From assembly GCA_024137785.1 (NCBI GenBank), contig JAHRHZ010000139.1, positions 35,828,196 to 35,892,195 on the forward strand: a stretch of DNA of 64,000 bases. Direction: 5' to 3'. The notes under the pieces are model-generated. The model was not told the DNA's origin. It saw only the letters and a program-made list of their open reading frames with translations, and ran no database searches. The stretch comes from Ginglymostoma cirratum. Its lineage: Eukaryota. Position 1 is the stretch's first letter. Every line of letters begins with the position of its first letter. The position numbers and the translations under genes were made by a program. Shown piece after piece: positions 1 to 64,000 of this stretch.

Positions 1-1020
1 TGAAATAAATGTTGCATATATACACAAACAGGAATTCTAGCACAAAATAGTTGTCATTTTACATGCCAGTTTGGCTTATACACAATAAGCTATGGTACTG
101 GTTGAGAGAAACAACCACTTTTCAGTACCAATGTTTCCATACTGAAAAATGTCCATTGCTCTATAAAATTGTTCTTTTTTTGCCCCTGGGAACTGTGTTC
201 CAATCTACTCTGAGCTCAGGCAATAATATCCTCCTTTTTCTGACAACTATAAAGGTCCCCTAGTGAAATCAGTTTGAAAAGTCTACATCTATTTCTTAAC
301 GGGTATGAATTCACTTCAGAAAGCTGCCTATATTTCAGCACTAATTGGCCATCTTATTCAGAAAGCATGCAAAGATGCCTCGCCTGGGAAATGGAAATGA
401 AAGCGGTTATCCTTTACATTGATAAGCAGAAAGTTTCACCCAAAATTTAAAGTCCAGAGAACATCAGATCAGTTCTGGCTGAGAAGCCTCTCTGATACTT
501 TAATATTGCAGCTCCAGCATCAATACACAGTGCACTGTCACAGATGTGAAAATTAGATTAGGAGCCTGATTTGACTCCTGCAGAGACTGCATGAGATTCC
601 AAGAGTGAATAGTCTCAGTGAGTGGAATCCTAGAGGGCTCTGAATGACGTGGGCTATGGCAAAAATCCGGAAGCATCGCATGAGAGGTCACTTGAGGCCT
701 TTCCCAACATTGGGAACAACAAATCACATTTTCCAACAGAGCTCCAGGCTTCAAGACGAGATTGTTGCTAGTAAGTAGTGTGATGCCTATTAACAGGAAT
801 TATCGCTCATTATCACCTACAGTACTAATCAAATCCTCCGCTGGAGAGAAACTAGATACTGAGAATTCCTAATATCAGAGTCGGAGTGGGCACTTTAAAA
901 CTCTGCAGCTCACTCTGCTCCTTTGGACCTCTATCCTGGGCACCTGGCACAAACACCTCAGAGCATGCTCCAAACCAGCAAACTCTTCAAACCCACTTAC
1001 AGTCCATTTCTTTATTCTTT

Positions 1021-1367
1021 TTCAGTCATTCACAGAATGACGGTGTCGCTGACTAGGCCAGCATTTATTGTCCACCTCTAATTGCCCAGAGAGCAGTTAT
1101 CGGTCAACCGCATTGCTGTGGGTTTGGAGTCACATGTATGCTGGATCAGGTAAAGATGGCAGTTTCCTTCCCCAAAGGTGCACCAGATGGGATTTGCTGA
1201 CAATTCGCAATGGAGTCACAGTCAACATTAGTCTCTTAATTCTAGATATCTATTGAATTCAAATTCCATCATGTGCCATGGCAGGATTTGAACCCAGGTC
1301 CCTAGAACATTACCTGGGTCTCTGGATTTACAGTCCAGTGATTATACCACTAGACCATTGCCTCCCC
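1021..1367 (-). mobile_element. tRNA-derived Deu-type SINE (SacSINE1-like)
   Basis: Minus strand reads box A (tggtctagtgg) and box B (ggttcaaatcc), then a body and the gggcaattag...aataaatgctggcctag tail shared with 8370-8700 and with the LINE at 43259-46530. Confidence 0.75.
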
Positions 1368-2199
1368 TTCAATGCTGCATTATGGAATGCAACTAATGGC
1401 ACATCCCCTTGCAAAGCTGCTGCACGAGTACTCTGCAAGTAGGGACAGGCACCCAAGCTCCCAGGCTGGCCCATACAGCACCTCAGGGTTTCTTCTTTTC
1501 TTTGTGCTCATTGACTTTATGCCCTCCTGGATGCTCACAGTCTGGTCTTTCCATGTAACACTTTGCCCCCTCAGCCAGAGCTAACAGGCACCCGGTACAT
1601 CTTTCTTGATTTGCCTTTTAACACAGACACAAAGCCAAAGAGCATGATGGTTGTATACAGTCGTCAGTTAAGTGAGTGATCACATTGCTATAGGACACCA
1701 TGTTACGGTGATCTCACACCTGCACCACATGGCTGCAGCTCACGCAGCAAATACACTGCATGAGCTTCAAGAAAATGGCCACATCTCAAAGTCTGAGAGT
1801 CCTCAGTCATGTTAAAGGAAGGCCTGGCACAATAAGTCAAGGGCAGCCACTGACTCATCTGCAGGTCTTGAGCAGTCATTTGGTCAGGATAATCTCCTTG
1901 TAGGGGATGAGGAACCAGATGTCCACCACCCCATCACCTGTTTCGGCTCTTTCTACCCTATTGTGCGTTGCTTACACCTTGGTTGACACAAAGGGAAGGA
2001 GGGAGTGAAATGAAAGTGAATGGCATAGCTGTTACTGCTGGTGCCTATGGGAGACAGGTTGTGAGGTATTCTGAGTGAGTGAGCAGGCAGCTCAATGGTC
2101 ACACAGGGTTAGTGTTCTGAGGGAATTGGGAGGGTGAGAACAAATGAGAGATGTTGCAGGCAACAGTGAGAGTGGTAGAGCAGGAGGCTCTGGGGGATT

Positions 2200-2480
2200 G
2201 GGTTCAGTAACTGAGATAGAGTGAGTGCATTATAGCAGGGAGAAGATGGTGGCGCTTATCCTGGTGGCACAGAGAAGATCAATGATCTTCATACACTGCT
2301 GGGCTTCCATTCGGATGACCAACATGGCACTGATCTAGGTGGCAACCTTTGACCAGGCTGGCAGCATCTGATCTTGTGGGAAGAGGACATTCTTCCTCTG
2401 TCCACTAGGATCTTGAGGTCCCTGCCTACAAAATCGAGTGCCAACTGCCTCTTGTCCCCCATGACTGAGGCAAGTATCAC
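2200..2480 (-). mobile_element. Decayed Harbinger-like Myb/SANT ORF remnant
   Basis: MGDKRQLALDFVGRDLKILVDR aligns with 49940-50150 (MEDKGKLALHNVDRDLEVLVERVVQRR) and 59460-59680. Resembles NAIF1/MSANTD-type Harbinger proteins. Confidence 0.5.
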
Positions 2481-3589
2481 AAATCACGCAGGCCAGCTCT
2501 GGACCGATGGTGCTTCACCAGATGCATAATGGCCCTTTTAAAATGGTGTTACCACCAGGGAATAGTCTATTTTGGAACAACCCAACTGTGGCAAATACTT
2601 CCAGGTATGGTGAGTGAGTGAATCGGCTAGCATTGGATGAGAAAGGGAGGATAGATAGTTAACGAGGCAGGTTTGGGATGGTAATGCAAGAAAACTCACT
2701 AGGCCTCAAGGGCAGAATCCCTCCATGGAATTCAACAAAAATAACACCATCAAAATGTTATTTGATTCAGCTCACAGTTTTAGGATTAATACCATGTGAA
2801 TAAGTCTAATTTCAATGCAATATCCAAATAGTTCCACAACTTACTTCAAGCATATTGGCTTTAGCCTTCTTGTATATTTTGCAAACAAACCGGTAGTTTC
2901 GTAAAGTATACGGAGATTGGAGCTGCTCCTGTTCTTAATCTCAAATGAATATTAAAGCAAATGGTCTGAGGTATGCATTATCCTACTCAATACAAGAAAT
3001 GTAGCGGCTGTTTCACTCTTTTCTGTGCCCAGCTACACAACACAAATGAAAAATGGTTGCAGGTCCTTTGTATTGAATATCTATGATGAAACTGCATCCC
3101 AAATTCCTATCGAGTTTTGAACGGTACGCACCTCACTAAGAAAAAGGAAGCACAATAAAAGTTAATGGGGACAGCGTAACTTTAGCAGGAAAGAAACGGA
3201 TAATAATGACTCAACCAACCATTTTACATCACTCGCAATTTCCCTTCCATTGACTTCACCCACAATCTAAGACTGACAAGCAGACTTTCCTGAGCAAAGT
3301 ACATCAACTATAAAGCTAGGCAGCAAGTGTCAGCTTGAAAACGTTTATCCTGTTGGAGACACTACCAGAACTAAAATTACAAACAAAGCATTAAAAATGT
3401 TTTCTGTACCTCAATGCACTATTCCAAATTAGGTTTTGATATTAACTAATCTTGACACTAAGTAAGACATGAGAACAAATATTTATATTTTGCAGACTAC
3501 TGAGGCAAGAACTGAAGCTGTGCTGCATGACCACAGTTTCTGAGATACTTGTTCAAAAATAAAACTGTGACATGGATCATTAAGCATTA

Positions 3590-8369: not shown

Positions 8370-8700
8370 GTGAGGTAATGGTCTCGTGGTATTATCGTTA
8401 GACTATTAATACATAAACCGAGGAAACGTTCAATGGAACTACATTCAATCCTTGTGATGACAGATGGTGGAATTTGAATTCAATTTTTAAAAAGTTGGAA
8501 CTAAAAAGTCTAGCAATGACCATGAAACCATTGTTAATTGTCAGGAAAATCTGATCTGGCTCACTAATACCCTTTAGGGAAGAAAGCTGCTGCCCTACAT
8601 GTGACTATAGACCCACAACAATGTGATTGATTCTTGACTGTTCTCTGGGCAATTGGGTTTCACTGGCCTAATCAGAAATGCCCATATCCCGTTCATGAAT
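8370..8700 (+). mobile_element. Deu-type SINE (SacSINE1-like)
   Basis: Colinear with 43259-43565 (gatggtggaatttgaattcaa, ccatgaaaccattgt, ctcactaataccctttagggaag, ctacatgtgac), then jumps to the LINE 3' tail. Confidence 0.75.
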
Positions 8701-8998: not shown

Positions 8999-9263
8999 AT
9001 TATTTTTTATTCATTCTTTGGATGTGAGTGTCACTGTCTAGACCACCATTGATTTCCAATTCCACATTTCACTGGAGAAGGTAGTTGTGAATTGCCTTCT
9101 TGAATTTCTGCATGGGGTGTACAGAAACCCACATTGCTTCGAGGAAGGTTCAATAAGGTTATCCTTGTGGCAGTGAAGCAATGGTGATATACCTCCAAGT
9201 CATGATCGTGAGTAGATTGGAGGGGTGCTGTTCCTATCCTCCTGCTGCCCTCATGCTCCTAGG

Positions 9264-9693
9264 TGTAATGATTGTAATGAGGTTAGCTAGGTAGACCTAA
9301 CAGAATATGAGATAACGAGGTGTGGAGCTGGATGAACACAGCAGGCCAGGCAGTGTCAGAGGAGCAGGAAAGCTGACGTTTCGGGTCAGGACCCTTCTTC
9401 TGAAGACGGGTCCCGACCTGAAACATCAGCTTTCCTGCTCCTCCGATGCTGCCTGGCCTGCTGTGTTCATCCAGCTCCACACCTTGTTATCTCATAGAAT
9501 ATGAGTTTCCTGATTGGACCAAATTAACAGCCCCAGTCAGGGAGTCCTGGCTGACAGATACATACAGGAGAATCAGAGGTTCTGTTCACTTGGAGCTGGC
9601 TCTAAGGGAGCTAGATCAGTATCAAGGATTCTCCACGTGTAAATAAACGGTGACTTGGTGACTAGGGATATTGGCCTCTGTGGAGTTATTTCA
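9264..9693 (+). mobile_element. Solo Gypsy LTR (same family as 37111-41882), interrupted by a palindromic PLE insert
   Basis: TG...CA ends. 5-bp TSD ctagg (9259-9263 / 9694-9698). Homologous to the LTRs at 37111-37319 and 41666-41882. Confidence 0.85.
9309..9493. mobile_element. Palindromic PLE-end element (two inverted family-1 3' termini)
   Basis: Arms of about 90 bp, gagataac...acccttc / gaagacgggt...gttatctc. Duplicated target ctaacagaatatgag / ctcatagaatatgag. Confidence 0.9.
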
Positions 9694-10006
9694 CTAGGTG
9701 GTTGAGGTTTCAAGATAGGAAGATAGGAAGATGCTGTCCAAGGGATCTTAGCAAATGTTTGCTCTCCAACTTGTTGATAGTGCCTATTATTGCTGTTGTG
9801 CATCATGGTGAAGGGCGTGAATGTTAATGATAGTGTTAATGAAACAGGTTGTTTTTCAGGGTGATATCAGGCTTTTTCAGTGTTGTCGAAGCTACACTCA
9901 TCCAGGCAAATGCAGAATATTCCAACACACTGCTGACAAGTGCCTTCTAGATGGTGGGCAGCAAATGGGGAGACAGGAAGTGAATAACTCGCTGTGCAAT
10001 TCCTAG

Positions 10007-11040
10007 CCATATCTAAACTCCAGTGAATACAGGTCTAAGTTTTCAACCTATCCCGTAAGATAATCCCTTCATCCTAGGAATCAACCAAGTGAAACTTCTG
10101 TGAACTGCTTCCAATTGAAGTGCATCCCTCCTTAAGAAAGGAGGCCAAACTTTGTGCCTGGAATACTGCATAATATCCCAATATCCTCTACTGTTGTAGC
10201 AAGACTTTCCCATCAGAACCTTCCTACATGCCCAAAGTGTCATCCCTCTCTTCACATTCCCCTCAAGGTGGGCAGTGGTAGGGAACAGCCTGCTATCCAC
10301 TTCATTGTGCATACCTGACATGCCAAATATAAAGACTGCTATAATTGTACAGATTTTCTTGTAAGTCCTGTAATGTTTATATATTTTTTGTAATTTATTT
10401 TCAAATTTTATGAATGAAGTATATTTTTGGAAAATTAATTAATTCTTTGATAGGGGATGAACAAAGAACACACTAGAATCATAGACCTGTACAGTGTGGA
10501 AACCGACCCTTCGGTCCAACTCGTCCATGATGACCAGGTATCCTAAATTGATCTAGACCCATTTGCCAGCATTTGGCCCATATCCCTCAAAAACCTCCCT
10601 ATTCATGTACCCCTCCAGATTCCTTTTAAATGTTGTAATTGCACCCACCTCCACCATTTCCTCTGGCAGCTCATTCCATACACACACCACCCTCTGTATG
10701 AAAATGTTACCCCTGAGGTTCCTTTTAAATCTTTCCATTCTCACCTCAAACCCATACCGTCTAGTTTTGGACTCCTCTATCCTGGGGAAAAGACCTTGTC
10801 TATTTACCCTATTTATCCATGCCCCTCATGATTTTATAAACGTCTATAAGGTCACCCTTCAGTCTCCGACTCTCCAGGGAAAATAGCCCCAACCTTTTCA
10901 GCCTCTCCCTATAGGCAAACCCTCCAACCCTGGTAAAACCATTGTAAATCTTTTCCGAACTCTTTCGCGTTTCACAACATCTTTTCTATAGCAGGGAGAC
11001 CAGAATTGAACATATTATTCTGTAAGTGGCCTAAATGCTA
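10007..11040 (-). mobile_element. Two CR1 (HER1-like) LINE 3' fragments (about 10007-10230 and 10470-11040)
   Basis: ORFs DALQLEAVHRSFTWLIPRMKGLSY and FKRNLRGNIFIQRVVCVWNELPEE..GYGPNAGKW are standard CR1 ORF2 C-termini. Confidence 0.8.
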
Positions 11041-22949: not shown

Positions 22950-23340
22950 TTATTGGCACCCCATTCAGAAACTTAAACAATCATTCCCTCCGCTACAGGT
23001 ACACAATGACAGTACTATGTAGTATTTACAGGGTGCACTGCAGCATTTCACCAAAGCCTCTCCAGCAACATCTTCCATGTGACCTCGAACACCTAAGACA
23101 AGAACAGTTTACAGATGGAACACCAGCACCTGCAAGTTCCCTACGAAGCTAAACATCTTATTTGGAATAATTTCATCATTTCTTCACTGTCACTGGGTCA
23201 TAAAACCTGAATCATTCTATCCAACACACTTATATCACAGGCACTGCAGCAGTTCAAGAAGGTGACTTACTACCAACTTCTCATTGGCTATTAGGGATGG
23301 CAACAAATGGTGAACTTATTAGTAATGAACACATCCTCCT
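22950..23340 (+). mobile_element. 3' fragment of the SINE-headed LINE family
   Basis: Matches about 46120-46520 (tgcactgcagc, caagttccc, cttcactgtcactgggtc, gcagttcaagaagg). Confidence 0.7.
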
Positions 23341-29919: not shown

Positions 29920-30070
29920 TGCTGGCCTTACCTGATATGACTCGACAGACCCTCAGTGGTAAACACTCAGCTGCCCTCTGAAGTGGTCTAGCAAGTCACT
30001 CAGTTCAAGGGTAGACCACAAAGGCTAGTCTTGCTGGCAACATACACATCCCTTGAAAGACTAAATAAAT
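29920..30070 (+). mobile_element. Deu-type SINE 3' half
   Basis: ctgccctctgaagtggtctagcaagtcactcagtt|caaggg joins LINE 5' sequence (43557-43590) to the LINE 3' tail (46453 onward). Confidence 0.6.
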
Positions 30071-41882: not shown

Positions 41883-43258
41883 ATCACTACAATTCGCACT
41901 CCACAGCCATTTTCCCAGATGTGGGAGAGGATGCAGGGGTAGAATTTATTCCATACATTGGGGGTCTTACTATCAATACTACCAACACTAAACGACAAGC
42001 CACCCCCACCTCACTCCTGCCACCTGTGGAGAAATAGTGGGAGCCCCTTTTTTTGCCAGTTGCATGGAAATCTTGCCCCAAGAGTTAGCAGTTAAATGGA
42101 GGCTGGTCGCTCTCCAGTACCAGCAGCATTACTGGAACAATGTTTATGCTTTTAGTCATACTCTGAGATTTTATGGACCATCGGTGGCTTTCTGGAGGTT
42201 GAACAGGATGGTGATTGCATGTAGTGGATGGCTTATGAGGGAGATCAAATGCAAGGACAGGGTAAACACTAGTGATAGGAAATTTAAACTGTTGCAATCA
42301 CTAAGGAATGAGTACTGGGGGAAACTATTATAACTAAAGGCTGACAGTGCCCTAGAACTGATGGCCTGCATTCTATTGTCTTTTAAGAAGTGGCTGCAAA
42401 GTGAGTAGATACATTGGTTATGATCTCCCAAATTTCCCTAAATTCTGGAAAGATCCTGGCAAATTGGAAGATCACAGGGATCACATCTCTAATCGAGAAA
42501 AGAGGGTGACAGAACTCAAGATCCTACATTGCCAGACAGCACAGCTTTTGTCAAAAGGAAAATGCTCAAATCCGTTATAAATTCCGACAGAGCCAACCTA
42601 GTTTTGTGCAAGAGGAATCATGTTTAACTAACTTATTGGCATCCTTTAAAAAGGGAACACACAAGGTGGATAAAGGACAGCCTGTAGATGTGGTGTATTT
42701 TCAAAAGGCACTTGACAATGTGCCACATCAAAGGTTATTGCACAAAATAAGAATTCATGGTATAGAAGAATGGTTGGGAAAGAGGGAGATAAGAGTTGGG
42801 TGGCAAGCTGTAACTAGTACAGTGTTACAGAGATTAGTGTTGGGCTTCACTATTTATGGTGTATATTAATGGCTTTGATGAAGGGACCAAATGTGCAGTG
42901 GCTAATTTCACTGATGACAGACTGACAGGCAGAAAAGTAGGGTAAGCAGTCAAAATGAGACAAAGAGTGTACAAGACGATCCAATAGATTAATTGTGTGG
43001 ATAAAAATTTGGCAGATGAAGTAACATGAGTGTTAATGTGAACTTGTCGACTTTTGCAGGAAGGATAAATTAGCATTTTATATATTTAAATGAAGAGAGA
43101 TTGCAAACCACTATGGTGCAAAGAGATTGGGTGTCCTGGTACAGAAATCACAAGATGATAACATGAAGGTGCAGCAAGTTGATAAAGACAACAAGTGGAA
43201 TGTTGATGTTCATGAAAAGGGTATCAAGTTTAAATGTAGAGACGTGTTGCTATAATTT

Positions 43259-46200
43259 GTGGGTAGGCGATGGCCTAGTGATATGTACTAGTGGTATTAT
43301 TGCTAGACTATAATCCAGAAACCCAATTAATGTTCTGGGGACTGGGGTTCAAATCCCACCACGGCAGAGTTGGAATTTGAATTCAATAAAAAAAAGTCTG
43401 GAATTAAGAATCTACTGATTACCATGAAACCATTGTCGATTTTCAGGAAAAACCCATGTGGCCCACTAATGTCCTTCAGGGAAGGAAATCTGCCATCCTC
43501 ACGTGGTGTGGCCTACATGTGACTCCAGACCCACAGCAATGTGCTTGACCCTCAATTGCCCTCTGAAATGGCCTAGCAAGCCATTCAATTGTAACAATCA
43601 CTACAAATTCTCAGAGAAATGAAGCTGGACATGTCATGTGGCATCAAGTGAAGCACCGGAAAAGACAATGGCAGAAACAGCCCGGTTGACCCTGCAAAGT
43701 CCTCCTCACTAACATCCGGGGGCTAGTGCCAAAATTGGGACAGCTGTCTCACAGACTCTTCAAGCAACTGCCTGATGTAGTGATAGTCACAGAATCATAC
43801 CTTACAATTTCCCAGACACCACCATCACCATCCCTGGATATGTCCTGTGCTGCCAGCAGGACAGACCCAGCAGAGTTGGCACACAGTGGTATACAGTTGG
43901 GATGGTGTTGTCCTGGGATTCCTCAACATTGACTCCAGACCCCATGAAGTCTCATGGCTTCAGGTTAAGCATGGGCAAGGAAACATGTTGCTGAATATCA
44001 GATACCTTCCTCCCTCAGCTGATGAATCCGTACTCCTCCAGGATGAATAACACTTAGAGGAAGCACTGAGGATGGCAAGGGCACAAAATGTACTCTGGGT
44101 GGGGAATTTCAATGCCCACCACCAAGAGTGGCTCAACAGCAGTACTACTGATCGAGCTGGTCGGGTCCTAAAGGACATAGCTGTTAGACTGGGTCTGCAG
44201 CAGGTGATGAGAGAACCAACAAGAGAGAAAAACATACTTGACCTCATTCTTACTAATCTGTCAGCTGCAGAAGCATCTGTCCATGACCGTATCGGTAAGA
44301 GTGACCATCGCACAGTCCTTGTGGAGACAAAGTCCCACATTCACATTGAGAACAGCCTCCATCATGTTGTGTGGCACTATCACCGTGCTAAATGCGACAG
44401 ACTTCACGCAGATCTAGCAACTCAAGACTGGGCATCCATGAGGTGCTGTGGGCCATCAACAGCGCAGAATTATACCCCAGCACAATCTGTAACATCATGG
44501 CCCGGCATATCACCCACTCAACCATTACCATCAAGCCAGGGGATCAAACCCAGGCAGTTCAATTGAGAGTGCAGGAGGGCATGCCAGGATCAGCATGAGG
44601 CATATCTAAAATTGAGGTCTCAAGCTGGTGAAGCGACCAAAGAGGACTACTTCCATGCCAAACAGCAAATGCAGCAAGTGATAGACAGAGCTAAGTGATC
44701 CCACAACCAATGGATCAGATCTAAGCTCTGCAATCCTGCCACATCCAGTCATGAATGGTGGTGGACAATTAAACAACTCACTGGAGGAGGAGGATCCACA
44801 AATATCCCCATCCCCACTGATGGAAGAGCCCAGCACATCAGTGCAAAAGGTAAAGCTGAAGCATTTGCAGCAATCTTCAGCCAGAAGTGCCAAGTGGATG
44901 ATCCATCTCGGTCTCCTCCAATGGTCTCCAGCATTACAAATACCAGTCTTCAGCCAATTCAATTCACTCCACGTGTTATCCAGAAACGGTTAGAGACATT
45001 GGATACTGCAAAGGCTACAGGCCTTGACAAAATTCCGGCAATAGTACTGAAGACTTGTGCTTCAGAACTTTCTGCTCCCCTAGCCATACTGTTCCAGTAC
45101 AGTTACAACAATGGTATCGACTCAACAATGTGGAAAATTGCCCAAGTATGTTCTCTACACAAAAAGCAGGACAAGTCCAACCTGGCCAATTACCACCCCA
45201 TCGGTCTACTGTCGATCATCAGTAAAGTGATGGAAGTTGTCATCAAACAGTGCTGTTGAGTTTCCCCTACTCGGCAATAACCTGCTCAGTGATGCCTAGT
45301 TTGGGTTCCGCCAGGGCCGCTCAGCTCCTGACCTCATGACAATGTTGGTTCAAACATGGACAAAAGAGCTGAATTCCAGACTGAGGTGAGAGTGACAGTC
45401 CTTAACATCAAGGTTGCATTCGACCAAGTGTGGCATCAAGGAACCCTGGCGAAACTGGAATTGATGAGTATCAGAGGGAAAACTCTCCACCAGTTGGAGT
45501 CATAGCTGACACATAGGAAGATGGTCATGGTTGTTGGAGGTCCGTCATCTCAGCTCCAGGACAGCTCTTCAAGAGTTCCTCAGGGTAATGTCCTCAGCCC
45601 AACCATCTTCAGCTGCTTCATCAATGACCTTCCCTCCATCACAAGGTCAGAGGTGGGGATGTTCAGCGCCATTCATGTCTCCTCAGATACTGAAGCAGTC
45701 CATGTTCAAATGCAACAAGTTCAGGAAAATATCCAGGCTTGGGCTGACAAGTGGCAAGTGACATTTGCACCACACAAATGCCAGGCTATGACCATTACAA
45801 ACAAGAGACAATCTATCTATCACCCCTTGACATTCAATGGTGTTACTGTCACTGAATCCCTCACCATTGACATCCTGGGGGTTATCATTGCCAGAAACTC
45901 AGTTGGACTCACCACATAAACACAATGACTACAAGAGCAGGCCAGAAGCTAGAAATACTGCGGGAAGGAAATCACCTCCTGTCTCCTCAAAGCCTCTCCA
46001 CCATCTACAGGGCACATGTCAGGAGTGTGATGGTATACTCCCCATATGCCTGGATGGGTGCAGCCCCAACAACACTCAAGAAGCTTGACACCATCCAGGA
46101 CAAAGCAGCCCTCTTGATTGGTACTGCATCCACTCTCTCCACCATCGATGCTCAGTAGCAGCAGTGTGTACTATCTGCAAGATGCACTGCAGAAATTCAC

Positions 46201-46530
46201 CAAAGAACCTCAGACAGCACCTTCCAAACCCATGACCACTTACATCTAGAAGGACAAGGGCAGCAGGTACATGGGAACACCATCACCTTCAAGTTCCCCT
46301 CCAAGCCACTCACCATCCTGACTTGGAAACATATCTCCATTCCTTCACTGTCACTGGGTCAAAATCCTGGAATTTCCTCGCTAATAGCATTGTGGGTCAA
46401 CCCACAGCAGGAGGAATGCAGTGGTTCAAGAAGGCAGCTCACCACCGCCTTCTCAAGGGCAACTAGGCATGGGCAAGAAATGCTGGCCAGCCAGCAACAC
46501 CCACATCCCACAAATGAATGTTTAAAAAAA
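43259..46530 (+). mobile_element. Full-length 3.3 kb CR1-group LINE with tRNA/Deu-SINE-like 5' end and a single APE-RT ORF (decayed)
   Basis: Box A 43271-43280 and box B 43346-43356. APE KVLLTNIRGL..PDVVIVTESYL from about 43696, plus VGNFNAHH and GKSDH. RT KATGLDKIP, VPQGNVLSPTIFSCFINDLP, WADKWQVTFAPHKC. SINE-like 3' tail and A-rich end. Confidence 0.88.
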
Positions 46531-46839
46531 ATTATACAGTATCATCATGAGACAGCTTCTGGAGTACTGAGTACAGTTTTAGTCTCCGGACGTAAGAAAT
46601 GTTGAAAATGGGAATGAAGCTGTTCAAAGAAGTTTCATACAACTCATTCCCAGGACGATGGGGTTGCTTATGAGGGCAGATTATACAATTTTCTTGTATC
46701 CATTAGAGTTTAGGAGAATGAGAGTTTATTTTATTGAAAAATATCTGATTCTGAGGAGACAGGGTGGATGTTAAGACGATGCTACTCTTGTACCCAACTC
46801 TGGAACTTAGGGACGTTGTTTAAAATTGAGGAGTTTCCC

Positions 46840-47725
46840 ATTGGTTACAAGAGCGGGACAGAGGTCAGGAACACTGACGCAAGTAACCCACCCCCCTGAG
46901 ACGCCACAGCCTGTCCACCATCAACAAGGAGTGTTGGAATATTCCCCACTTGCCTGCATGAGTTCACCTCCATCAACACTCAAGAAGCTTGACACCATTC
47001 AGGACAAATCAGCCTGCTTGAATGGCACCTTAGAATCATAGAATCCCTCTACAGCGGAAGCATGCCATTCAGTCCATCAAGTCCATACTGACCCTCCAAA
47101 GAGCATCCCACCTAGACCCATCCCCCTACTCAATCCCTGTAACCTTGCTTTTCCCACAGTCAATCAACATAACCTCCACATCTTTGGACTGTGGGAAGAA
47201 ACCATAAAACTCCGAGGAAACCAAAACAGACACAGGGAGAACATGCAAACTCCACACAGACAATCACCTAGGTCCCTAGCACTATGAGGCAGCAGTGCTA
47301 ACCACTCTGCCACTGTGACCCTCATTGACCACATTCACAAGCATCCATTCACTCCACCACTGACACTCAGTAGCTGCATTGTGTACAATCTATAAAATGC
47401 ACTGCAGAAATTTATCAAAGGTCTTTGGACAGCACCTTCCAAACCCACAATCATCTCCATCTCGAAGGACAATGGCAGAAGAAACACCAGAATCTGCAAG
47501 TTCCTCTCCAAGCCACTCACAATTCTGGCTTGGAAATATGTCACCATTCCTTCACTGTCACTGCGTCAAAATCCTAGAATTCCCTCCCTAAGGGCATTGT
47601 GGGTCAACCTACATCACATGCACTGCTGCAGTTCAAGAAGGCAGCTCACCGCCATCTTCTCTAGGATAAATAGTGACAGACAATAAATGCTGGCCAGCCA
47701 GCAACACCCATGACCCACAAGTGAA
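46840..47725 (+). mobile_element. 3' fragment of the same LINE family, split by an HE1 SINE
   Basis: LEYSPLACMSSPPSTLKKLDTIQDKSACL; tail matches about 46150-46520. Confidence 0.8.
47031..47320 (-). mobile_element. HE1-type V-SINE
   Basis: Minus strand gtggcagagtggttagcactgctgcctca...gagtttgcatgttctccc...cccacagtccaaagatgtg. Confidence 0.8.
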
Positions 47726-49246
47726 TTAGAAAAAAGGCAGAGATGAGGGTGATTTTGTTTTTCTCTTAGAGTCACTAGTCTATTGAATTCTCCTCCCCAG
47801 AGACCACCGGAGGCTGAGTCATTGAACCCATTCAATGCTGAGTTTGAAGAGTTCTCGATCGACAGGGGCGTCAAGAGTTAAAGGGGCAGGCTGGAAAGTA
47901 GAGTTTTATTAACAATCAGTCTAGTCATGATTGTATAGTATAGCCAAGTTGGCTCAGAAGTCTCAATGACCTACTCCAGATACTAATTCTTATGTTCTTA
48001 AGTGTTTCTTTTCAGCAGCTTAAAGCTTCCTCATGGTGGCTCTCTCAGTTGGGCACTGAATGCCTGATATTGACAGAATTCCCCACATTGAGGCCACGGG
48101 AAAACTCAACAGGGTTTGCTGCACAGCTTTCAGGAGGCACAGCAGACTCGTATGAGACCCAAAAAAAACCCCCAAGCCTTCATTGAACGCCAGTGGGTTC
48201 AGGGATAATTGGCTTTAAGTGGTCATTAATGAACGATTAACTGACAGTCTTCCATCAATTTGTGGGATTCCCACATCGAGACTTGGCTGAAATTCAGTAC
48301 AGCTTTCCTGCTGCCCAGGATCACGTGCCGATATTCCCACCAGATTTTCCTAGCACCCACCATCGTGCCTGCTCCAGTGGGCTCTACTAAACCTGTCCCC
48401 AGGTCTTTGAAGAGCAAAGTTGTCTATCATGCAGAAATAATGATAGTCCTGGAAATCTGTGCTATAACGTGTCCCTAATGGTCTCAACTCTATGAAATAT
48501 TGGCAAACACAATAATGATCCTGGTAGTTCTACAGGCCTTTCAGAAACTGCCATACCTGCCTCTGTTTGTTGTTCCTGCCAGACAAAATTAGCTCGGAAT
48601 GACCAGCTTATTTTGACGTCCACTATTTGTGTTGAACTGCTTAAAATTATCTGCAGAAAAACTGTGTACATCCAACATTCTGAAATCAGCATCAATAGCC
48701 TTTTTATTATCAGGAAGAAAATATGTCTATAAATTTTTAAAGAACGTTGACATCCAATTTAGCAAAATTTTCAAACAGGTTCAGCTGAAACTGAAAACTT
48801 TGCAGGAACAGAATGTTATGTCTGTGAAATCCATTTCTTTTTCAAACTGGTTCTAAGGATATTGACCAGGATTCTGCTAAAAGAATGTGGATCTCATCAT
48901 CAACTGTTCAATGCACAGTGAGGAAGCCTGTCAGTTCTGTGGAGAAGGCAAAATGGAAGTGCCTTTCAGAAAGTGAGTCAACACAGAATGCACAGTGTGG
49001 CTTGTGGGTGGGGTGGGGGAGTTGGAGGCAAGGGTACACAGAGGTGACTTTCAGCAAATTGCCTGATCATAAGGGACATCCCTAGAAATAGGACAGTAAA
49101 TCCAACAAGCCATACGTGACCTCCATTTAATCCCTGAGGTACGACTGAATTGCTTTGGGCCAATGGATGTTAATTAACTCATTAACAAACTAAATCCTGT
49201 TGTCAGCCTCTGAGAACCCCACATCTGCCCCTTTCATTCTTTGACT

Positions 49247-61074: not shown

Positions 61075-61639
61075 CTACATGAAAAGATGAAATACATTTT
61101 GATACACTTTGTAGTTTTCCATACCTTAGCCCATATAACATATCCCACAGAGACTGGGGTTTTGATAAGACAGCTGTCTTAAAGTTTATTAACAATGCTA
61201 ACTACTTGTACTGCTATGATACAGATATACACATATAATCTGGGTACTGTGTTTTCTAATGTTACTGCATATTATACACACACATACAGCTAACTGACTG
61301 AACACACTCCTTTCATGACATTATGTAGGGAAACTGACTTTTGGAACATCACTTTTCATAATGTCACTTACATGTCTTAAAGGCACAAGCCTGTCTGGTC
61401 TGGAATCTATTCCATAAAATAGTTTGAGGTAAGGTAAGAATGACAGCCCTTGACATCAAGGCCACATTCAACATTATGTTGATAAATATAAATGTTTAAA
61501 TTCATGTTCGCGTTTTAACATCTTGTCTTATTTGAAAATTTTGCCAGAGCAAGTGTCGTGGATGCAGAGCAGAGAGAGGTGGGGCAGAATGATTCAACTA
61601 CTAGTGCAAGTTATCCCCACTCTTAACTTCCTATTCCTC

Positions 61640-63272: not shown

Positions 63273-64000
63273 CTGCAGAAAACAAAAATTATACTTTGTA
63301 CATCGGCAATGCTACCACGCAAAATACAAAGACACAGAGATTATCTGCAGAGTTACAGCATTTTGAAGTGAGCTGACATTGACTATTATGATTTTCCTAA
63401 AAACAGATCCGAGGTTTTAGGGGAGAAATTGGGCCCATCAGCATTCAGTTCTTTGTGTCCTACAAGTTCCACAGAGCCACATAATGGTCCCTGAAGATGC
63501 ACTGTTTTCAGGCAAGTTGTATTAGAACCAATATTGCTGATGGCGTTAGTCCTCATGTGTTGGACACACATTGCATGTACCTGGAGCAGGCAGATCATGA
63601 CAGTAAAGAACACACAATGCTGCTTTGATGTCAGCACGACCATTTTTAAGGTCAGTGCTCCAGCTCTCACCCTCTCGTAGCCCCAAAATGCTGAAAACTA
63701 ATTTAGCCGCAGAAATGATCCCCACAATAGTTCTATTGAAAGGAATCATTAAATAATTTTACATTACAAGCTGGTTGATATGCTGTTGGTTGCTTTGATT
63801 CCAAAGTGTTTGGTGCTTCCCATGTTTTAAGTCGCAAAAGTCCACAAGGGAGTGATGTGGCAGATGTTGAAAGTGTTTCTACTCTGATTTCAAGGCTCCA
63901 ACACCAGTCAGATTCCCCTGCACATATATGCACCAGCAGGTATCCCATTGGATCAATTGTTGGGAAAACCCATCTGGTTCACTAATGTCCTTTAGGAGAG

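Follow-up and report, generated by a model that had tools for sequence, protein, structure and literature searches.

Elasmobranch Zenon retrotransposons carry a tRNA-like head and a sense strand free of T-runs and are likely transcribed by RNA polymerase III

The analyzed window (64,000 nt of Ginglymostoma cirratum contig JAHRHZ010000139.1) contains, from position 43261 to ~46531, a dead, decayed copy of an elasmobranch Zenon LINE (CR1 group, single ORF), which aligns with 90% identity to positions 16-3281 of its family consensus. Fragments of the apurinic endonuclease (APE) and reverse transcriptase (RT) domains were recognized inside it by Pfam (PF14529 and PF00078). The copy is damaged by a 13-nt duplication in the A box, by stops and indels, and by a 21-nt deletion at 45659 that removed the FADD motif of the RT. 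The features of this element, of the CR1 element that hosts it and of related short elements (SINEs) in the window are as follows:

42618..43257, + strand: host CR1 RT, 5' part, ending in AATT
43261..43366, + strand: tRNA-like head (consensus 2-95); A-box region 43271-43294 disturbed by a local 13-nt duplication; 43347-43357 is the B box
43367..43590, + strand: 5' UTR body (consensus 96-318), candidate translation-initiation element
43565 (main) and 43590 (second), + strand: SINE junction sites on the LINE body, from comparison with free SINEs
43567..43698, + strand: AUG-less, Arg-rich N-terminal extension in frame with APE; the +1 frame has a conserved ATG at 43619
43567..46466, + strand: single APE+RT frame, 977 codons in the consensus, interrupted here by stops and indels
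46457..46531, + strand: 3' tail with hairpin and short poly(A) (consensus 3219-3281), common to the free SINEs
46530..46754, + strand: host CR1 RT, 3' part, beginning with AATT; first downstream TTTT at 46577
1021..1367, - strand: free SINE, LINE 2-293 joined to the tail from 3219 (consensus 2-293 = window 1367-1087, 78%)
8370..8700, + strand: another free SINE with this structure, in a more decayed state (consensus 11-293 = window 8378-8647, 73%)
29935-30070, + strand: SINE piece with the 318/3215-type junction
63945-64000, + strand: SINE piece

An earlier note, made from the sequence alone, had proposed that the whole unit interrupts a host CR1 at a single point, and this was borne out. Both flanks are CR1 RT (left, positions 1508-1628, and right, 1707-1905, of a CR1 consensus of the same genome), and their alignments extrapolate to an overlap of 3-4 nt, i.e. 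the AATT at 43254-43257 and 46530-46533. The first APE motif, TNIWG, is found at consensus position 436 (APE region from ~43699 in the window), in agreement with the estimate of ~440 nt from the 5' end, and therefore there is indeed no room for an ORF1.

The family consensus, built from 30 full-length copies and the window copy, is 3,281 nt long and comprises an A box (12-22), a B box (76-86), a body to ~318 and a 977-codon frame that opens at 295; its 3' end has a hairpin and poly(A). All APE and RT motifs are present in this intact frame, so the autonomous, ORF1-less build claimed for the element holds. The 3' ends of most of the 40 full-length copies are A-rich. A query spanning the linker returned 3,786 candidates in the 4.36-Gb genome; the copies analyzed were the best-scoring matches, not a random sample. 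With APE-internal queries, chosen to avoid bias toward the head, 87 loci were collected, of which 71 were kept after a 40-mer duplicate filter had dropped 16 (possibly some distinct copies among them). In 37 of these 71 copies the 5' start lies within 15 nt of the first base of the head; the others start at 16-100 (6 copies), 101-300 (10) or beyond 300 (18). No alternative shared 5' end was found in this set, in which the remaining copies break at scattered points and the upstream flanks have in common only other repeats, at inconsistent places. In the reverse direction, a head-only query found 29 other loci, of which 28 continue into ORF sequence. Similarly, a 21-mer from the end of the body had 496 exact matches, and of the first 30 in genome order 23 reach the APE (among them copies with as little as 68-82% identity to the consensus), while 7 fall short. 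Given an estimated 18% survival of this 21-mer, there are at least ~2,000 head-bearing LINE copies, as a rough lower bound. The head and the ORF have therefore moved as a unit, and the head is a trait of the family.

Linkage between head and ORF variants, tested on 81 copies (a few duplicate loci among them), was weak: one of 36 site pairs survived correction (58 x 648, p 6e-5), five further pairs had p of about 0.002-0.003 and most showed nothing. No overall signal of target-site duplication emerged from 38 full-length copies: the longest match averaged 4.9 nt, against 4.6 nt in mismatched pairs. Queries for a distinct older subfamily, which included the older fragments of the window, returned the same family, and no similarity to the head was found at 80 metagenome loci.

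The RhiTyp, CarCar, ScyCan, SquAca and HypSab Zenon-1 elements (Stuart et al. 2026, PMC13343379) belong to the same family and likewise have no ORF1, a poly(A), and APE and RT. Over the first 400 nt, RhiTyp_Zenon-1 (3,293 characters) is, by eye, nearly identical to our consensus and all 5 published elasmobranch consensi begin with the head; over the same length, coelacanth and hagfish Zenon-1 begin with an unrelated TTTT-rich sequence. Homologous pieces were also found in gene models of Heptranchias, Mobula, Heterodontus, Pristiophorus and Rhincodon, and contigs of three other organisms bridge the body and the N-terminal extension. In our own FastTree phylogeny, which contained no named Zenon references, the element falls among invertebrate proteins at 33-42% identity, far from shark CR1. 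The earlier note had foreseen that a database entry would remove the novelty of the structure. The element, its head sequence and the absence of ORF1, which is ordinary for Zenon, are indeed already known from the published supplement, but the head is unannotated there: in term searches, the main text of PMC13343379 yielded neither tRNA nor promoter nor polymerase III and its supplement no tRNA, and the head, the avoidance of T-runs, the missing AUG and the SINE derivatives described below did not come up.

A and B boxes lie at tRNA-like spacing at the 5' end of the consensus (12-22 and 76-86) and are kept in five species, both sharks and rays, as seen in the first 400 nt of the published Zenon-1 consensi. 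Default ARAGORN on the window and Rfam found no tRNA; the case for a tRNA origin of the head consists of these boxes and of a cloverleaf with a long variable arm, called by ARAGORN only when the threshold was lowered to 70%, a setting that gave two spurious calls as well. In the stem of this arm (consensus 50-70), compensatory changes between the published whale shark and dogfish consensi were noted by eye, and they suggest that the fold may be kept. The head was probably gained once, in the ancestor of sharks and rays. The assignment of the body to Deu, made in the earlier note, was rejected, and an identity of the head with a Deu/SacSINE1 SINE found no support: by eye, the body is unlike the aligned Deu sequences in the supplement of Kojima 2020, and the matches of four motifs (two from Deu, one each from Meta and UCON3) to the first 330 nt stayed at the level of shuffled sequence (P 0.16-0.91). 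DeuSINEs such as SacSINE1/LmeSINE1 are likewise described, in excerpts of PMC5499810, PMC3747384 and PMC7245038, as tRNA-headed shark SINEs; in contrast to them, the Zenon body does not match Deu motifs. The tail reported for SacSINE1 is L2-2_CM or CR1-4_DR-like (excerpts of PMC5499810 and PMC3747384).

RNA polymerase III (Pol III) terminates at oligo-T, and the count of T4 or longer runs on the sense strand of the Zenon consensus is zero in 3,281 nt. TTT runs number 3, as against 47 AAA, 46 CCC and 39 GGG runs, and the phenylalanine codons TTT and TTC are used in a ratio of 1:16. 5-mers with at least four T are absent from the 3,281 nt of the sense strand and occur 80 times on the antisense strand. 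The sense-strand expectation is 22.7 in mononucleotide shuffles (minimum 3 in 3,000), 11.5 in dinucleotide shuffles, none of 2,000 being free of such 5-mers, and 9.8 when synonymous codons are permuted, with 1 of 3,000 permutations free of them. A, C and G 5-mers and pyrimidine runs are not depleted, being at or above expectation. The strong result rests on the TTT and four-of-five-T counts, and TTT is not itself a Pol III terminator; for the absence of T4 alone, P is 0.0055 in base shuffles, but the stricter nulls give non-significant values of 0.15 (dinucleotide) and 0.16 (codon permutation). In its 2,269 nt, a CR1 consensus built from this genome contains 29 TTT runs, 9 T4 runs and 47 5-mers with at least four T, and its TTT:TTC ratio is 16:10; a younger CR1 family was taken for this control because matches to the direct relatives of the host CR1 were too heterogeneous for a consensus. 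The observed/expected ratio has a median of 1.08 (lowest 0.45) in 36 metagenome relatives (those with an ORF of at least 1.5 kb among the 80 loci) vs 0.23 in 56 decayed shark copies, in a comparison whose controls are one CR1 family and relatives at no more than 41% identity. None of 31 T-gaining subfamily variants creates a T signal, with only ~2 expected to do so. Past the 3' end, the first T4 occurs at a median of ~100 nt and was found in 58 of 59 copies (at 46577 in this locus), and the consensus body has no AATAAA. As there are no sense-strand T-runs and the head is tRNA-like, Pol III transcription, which the earlier note had raised as a possibility, can be rated likely, and we consider it quite probable, on these sequence grounds, that the full-length LINE RNA is made by Pol III.

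The alternative that fares best is that the head is a fossil, or a 5' UTR that recruits RNA polymerase II (Pol II), derived from a SINE that the LINE picked up in the past, with the RNA made by Pol II from its own or a read-in promoter, and with T-avoidance due to another cause, such as a compositional bias of Zenon as a whole or U-rich signals for decay or termination. It agrees with the standard view that LINEs are Pol II elements and that Pol III processivity limits length (excerpts of PMC10886601), with the degenerate cloverleaf and with the T4-only tests, and a conserved out-of-frame ATG could serve capped scanning. Set against this are the A and B boxes kept in five shark and ray species (first 400 nt of the published consensi), the sharp 5' end at the head, a consensus body with no AATAAA, and a depletion that is specific to T and to one strand and is absent from the controls. 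We therefore regard Pol II transcription as unlikely.

If the RNA is a Pol III product, it would be uncapped, and the translation problem raised in the earlier note is real. There is no in-frame ATG ahead of the APE, either in this copy or in the family consensus, where the first in-frame Met of the 977-codon frame is residue 171, within the endonuclease and past the APE motifs TNIWG, LTESY and TYRPP. Among 68 non-CpG, subfamily-level ORF variants, 42 are synonymous when read in the APE frame and 8 when read in the +1 frame. Hence more than one coding master has been under selection, and the APE+RT frame is under purifying selection. By eye, the frame in the five published consensi is kept from the Asn-Glu codons onward, with frame-changing length differences just upstream, and within their first 400 nt no ATG was seen that stays in frame without interruption; just two of the five extend as far as the APE there or via the family consensus. 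A possible in-frame ATG at codon 16 was seen in one other organism, on 1-2 contigs, at an indel-rich spot. Two invertebrate relatives (P0017 and P0018, 39-40% identity) have a Met and a basic stretch 25-30 residues before the first APE motif; in the shark frame the basic stretch is present and the Met is absent.

The body is nearly invariant at 43452-43590 in the first 400 nt of the five published elasmobranch consensi and at consensus 180-318 between sharks and ray, and its predicted fold, computed with no shuffle control, is a series of stacked hairpins. Because no AUG precedes residue 171, initiation is probably non-AUG and cap-independent; that it occurs through the body has, in our judgment, about an even chance. 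R2 and L1Tc offer the analogy on which the body (180-318) is proposed to be an IRES-like element: excerpts of a review (PMC6765202) describe their uncapped RNA as presumably translated via an IRES-like 5' structure, and R2 as also yielding short internally deleted elements (SIDEs). Unlike the shark Zenon, R2 and L1Tc have an HDV-like ribozyme that releases them from Pol I or Pol II co-transcripts (same review); in the Zenon 5' UTR no such ribozyme was found by Rfam, and a simple double-pseudoknot descriptor gave 0 matches. A purine-rich stretch at consensus 205-222 (43477-43494) resembles, by eye, an RTE/Ingi 5' UTR motif in the Kojima 2018 supplement.

Pol III RNAs are normally not translated. 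It could be argued on this ground that Pol III makes only the template RNA and that the protein is translated from another RNA, a capped one made by Pol II through read-in from host promoters, or arises by a -1 frameshift from the +1-frame ATG at consensus 347 (window 43619). This ATG is present in all five published elasmobranch consensi (first 400 nt), and the family occurs in probable RNA runs, their RNA status being guessed. Yet even a capped RNA would have no in-frame AUG before APE residue 171, no canonical slippery site was seen by eye, and most changes in the N-terminal extension are silent when read in the APE frame, which does not hold for the +1 frame (substitutions, 2 of 3 vs 0 of 3; codons, 5 of 8 vs 0 of 8). 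Such a division of labor appears quite improbable.

The free SINEs are built from the two ends of the LINE. The consensus of the main SINE (30 free loci) corresponds to LINE 2-293 (89% identity) joined to 3219-3281 (86%), both parts being visible at 26 of the 30 loci. A second subfamily (5 of 30 loci) has its junction at 318/~3215, and single-copy junctions were found at 356/3141, 382/3104 and 347/3150. The colinearity of the LINE head with the free SINEs was thus described correctly, but for the main SINE it extends over ~293 nt and not ~330 nt. Since there are several junctions, some of them within coding sequence, the direction appears to be from LINE to SINE, and the SINEs of this genome, which the term SINE-LINE chimera had implied to be donors of the head, are most readily understood as having arisen from the headed LINE by deletion. 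Their structure is consistent with internal deletion that left the first ~293-318 nt and the last ~65 nt of the LINE. SINE and LINE heads differ by 11%, so exchange of modules may also have occurred in the main SINE. At the main junction, complementary stretches (consensus 284-289 and 3219-3226; window 43556-43561 and 46457-46464) could pair in the LINE RNA; this pairing of only 5-6 bp may be due to chance. The idea of a locus-specific accident, in which a SINE inserted beside, or was template-switched onto, a truncated LINE, could appeal to free SINEs being far commoner than the LINE 5' region, but it is refuted by the same junction in dozens of copies, in contigs of three other organisms, in whale shark and horn shark gene models and in the published consensi (first 400 nt).

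The most probable reading overall, and one that we consider to have good odds, is that elasmobranch Zenon, with its tRNA-like head and T-run-free sense strand, has an RNA that is likely made by Pol III and whose translation likely requires neither cap nor AUG. In such a cycle, TFIIIC would bind the internal A and B boxes and Pol III would start at the head, read 3.3 kb and stop at the first T-run of the flank, a median of ~100 nt downstream. The structured, conserved body (consensus ~180-318) would recruit ribosomes, which would start at a non-AUG codon between the body and the Arg-rich stretch, and the LINE protein would bind the 3' hairpin/poly(A) and insert the element by target-primed reverse transcription. 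As promoter and tail sit at the two ends of the LINE, an internal deletion would turn it into a ready-made SINE, and more than one such event would have occurred. The full evolutionary proposal, i.e. that an autonomous coding retrotransposon of sharks and rays switched to Pol III, purged T-runs over 3.3 kb, acquired uncapped, AUG-less translation via a conserved structured 5' element and gave rise to SINEs by simple internal deletion, is put forward tentatively, at slightly less than an even chance.

To our knowledge, protein-coding jumping genes are not thought to use Pol III. The division into Pol II-transcribed LINEs and Pol III-transcribed SINEs is stated as general in excerpts of PMC10886601. 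This division would no longer hold if Pol III naturally made a coding transcript of 3.3 kb, which would also offer a natural case of translation of an uncapped Pol III RNA, with a short, conserved and directly testable candidate initiation element. The shark element would further provide a one-step route to a SINE whose parent LINE is still in the genome, which bears on the origin of SINE bodies. In a non-exhaustive literature search, no description of a Pol III-driven LINE was found, nor were the Pol III reading of Zenon, the purge of T-runs, the missing AUG or this route of SINE birth found in print.

Several known systems are partly similar. The lepidopteran Zenon and its SIDE Persaeus are, according to excerpts of PMC6740152, likewise a CR1-group element of 3.1-3.7 kb and its derivative of 5' and 3' parts formed by internal deletion; Persaeus has no tRNA homology or Pol III promoter, whereas the shark deletion product is a true SINE with A and B boxes. 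Published SINEs with a body from a LINE 5' UTR and a tail from the LINE 3' end follow the same plan as the shark SINEs, but their head was added after the deletion and their donors are only RTE and Vingi elements, whereas in sharks the autonomous LINE itself bears the head; the same account mentions once, in passing, an RTE with a tRNA-like sequence. TRIMp3 elements (Cassandra, Helenus and Ajax) are also retroelements with Pol III promoters derived from small RNAs, but unlike Zenon they are non-coding, of LTR type and at most ~1.3 kb long (excerpts of PMC10886601).

Related copies were also observed in unusual contexts. LINE fragments are fused into shark gene models P0002, P0007, P0009, P0013 and P0195 (aldo-keto reductase, SVEP1-like, GPR139 and RIMS1-like), which are probably annotation artefacts, and two full-length copies (L093 and L103) sit inside antisense copies of their own SINE. 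Directly downstream of the insert, the window holds a second, 5'-truncated copy of the same LINE (46839-47726, 79-82% to consensus), split by a reverse-strand SINE-like insert at ~47030-47330, which we take to be HE1/V-SINE-like. Older 3' fragments of the LINE, with 68-72% identity to the consensus, lie at 9009-10007 (- strand), 22975-23312 (+ strand) and 61426-61472.
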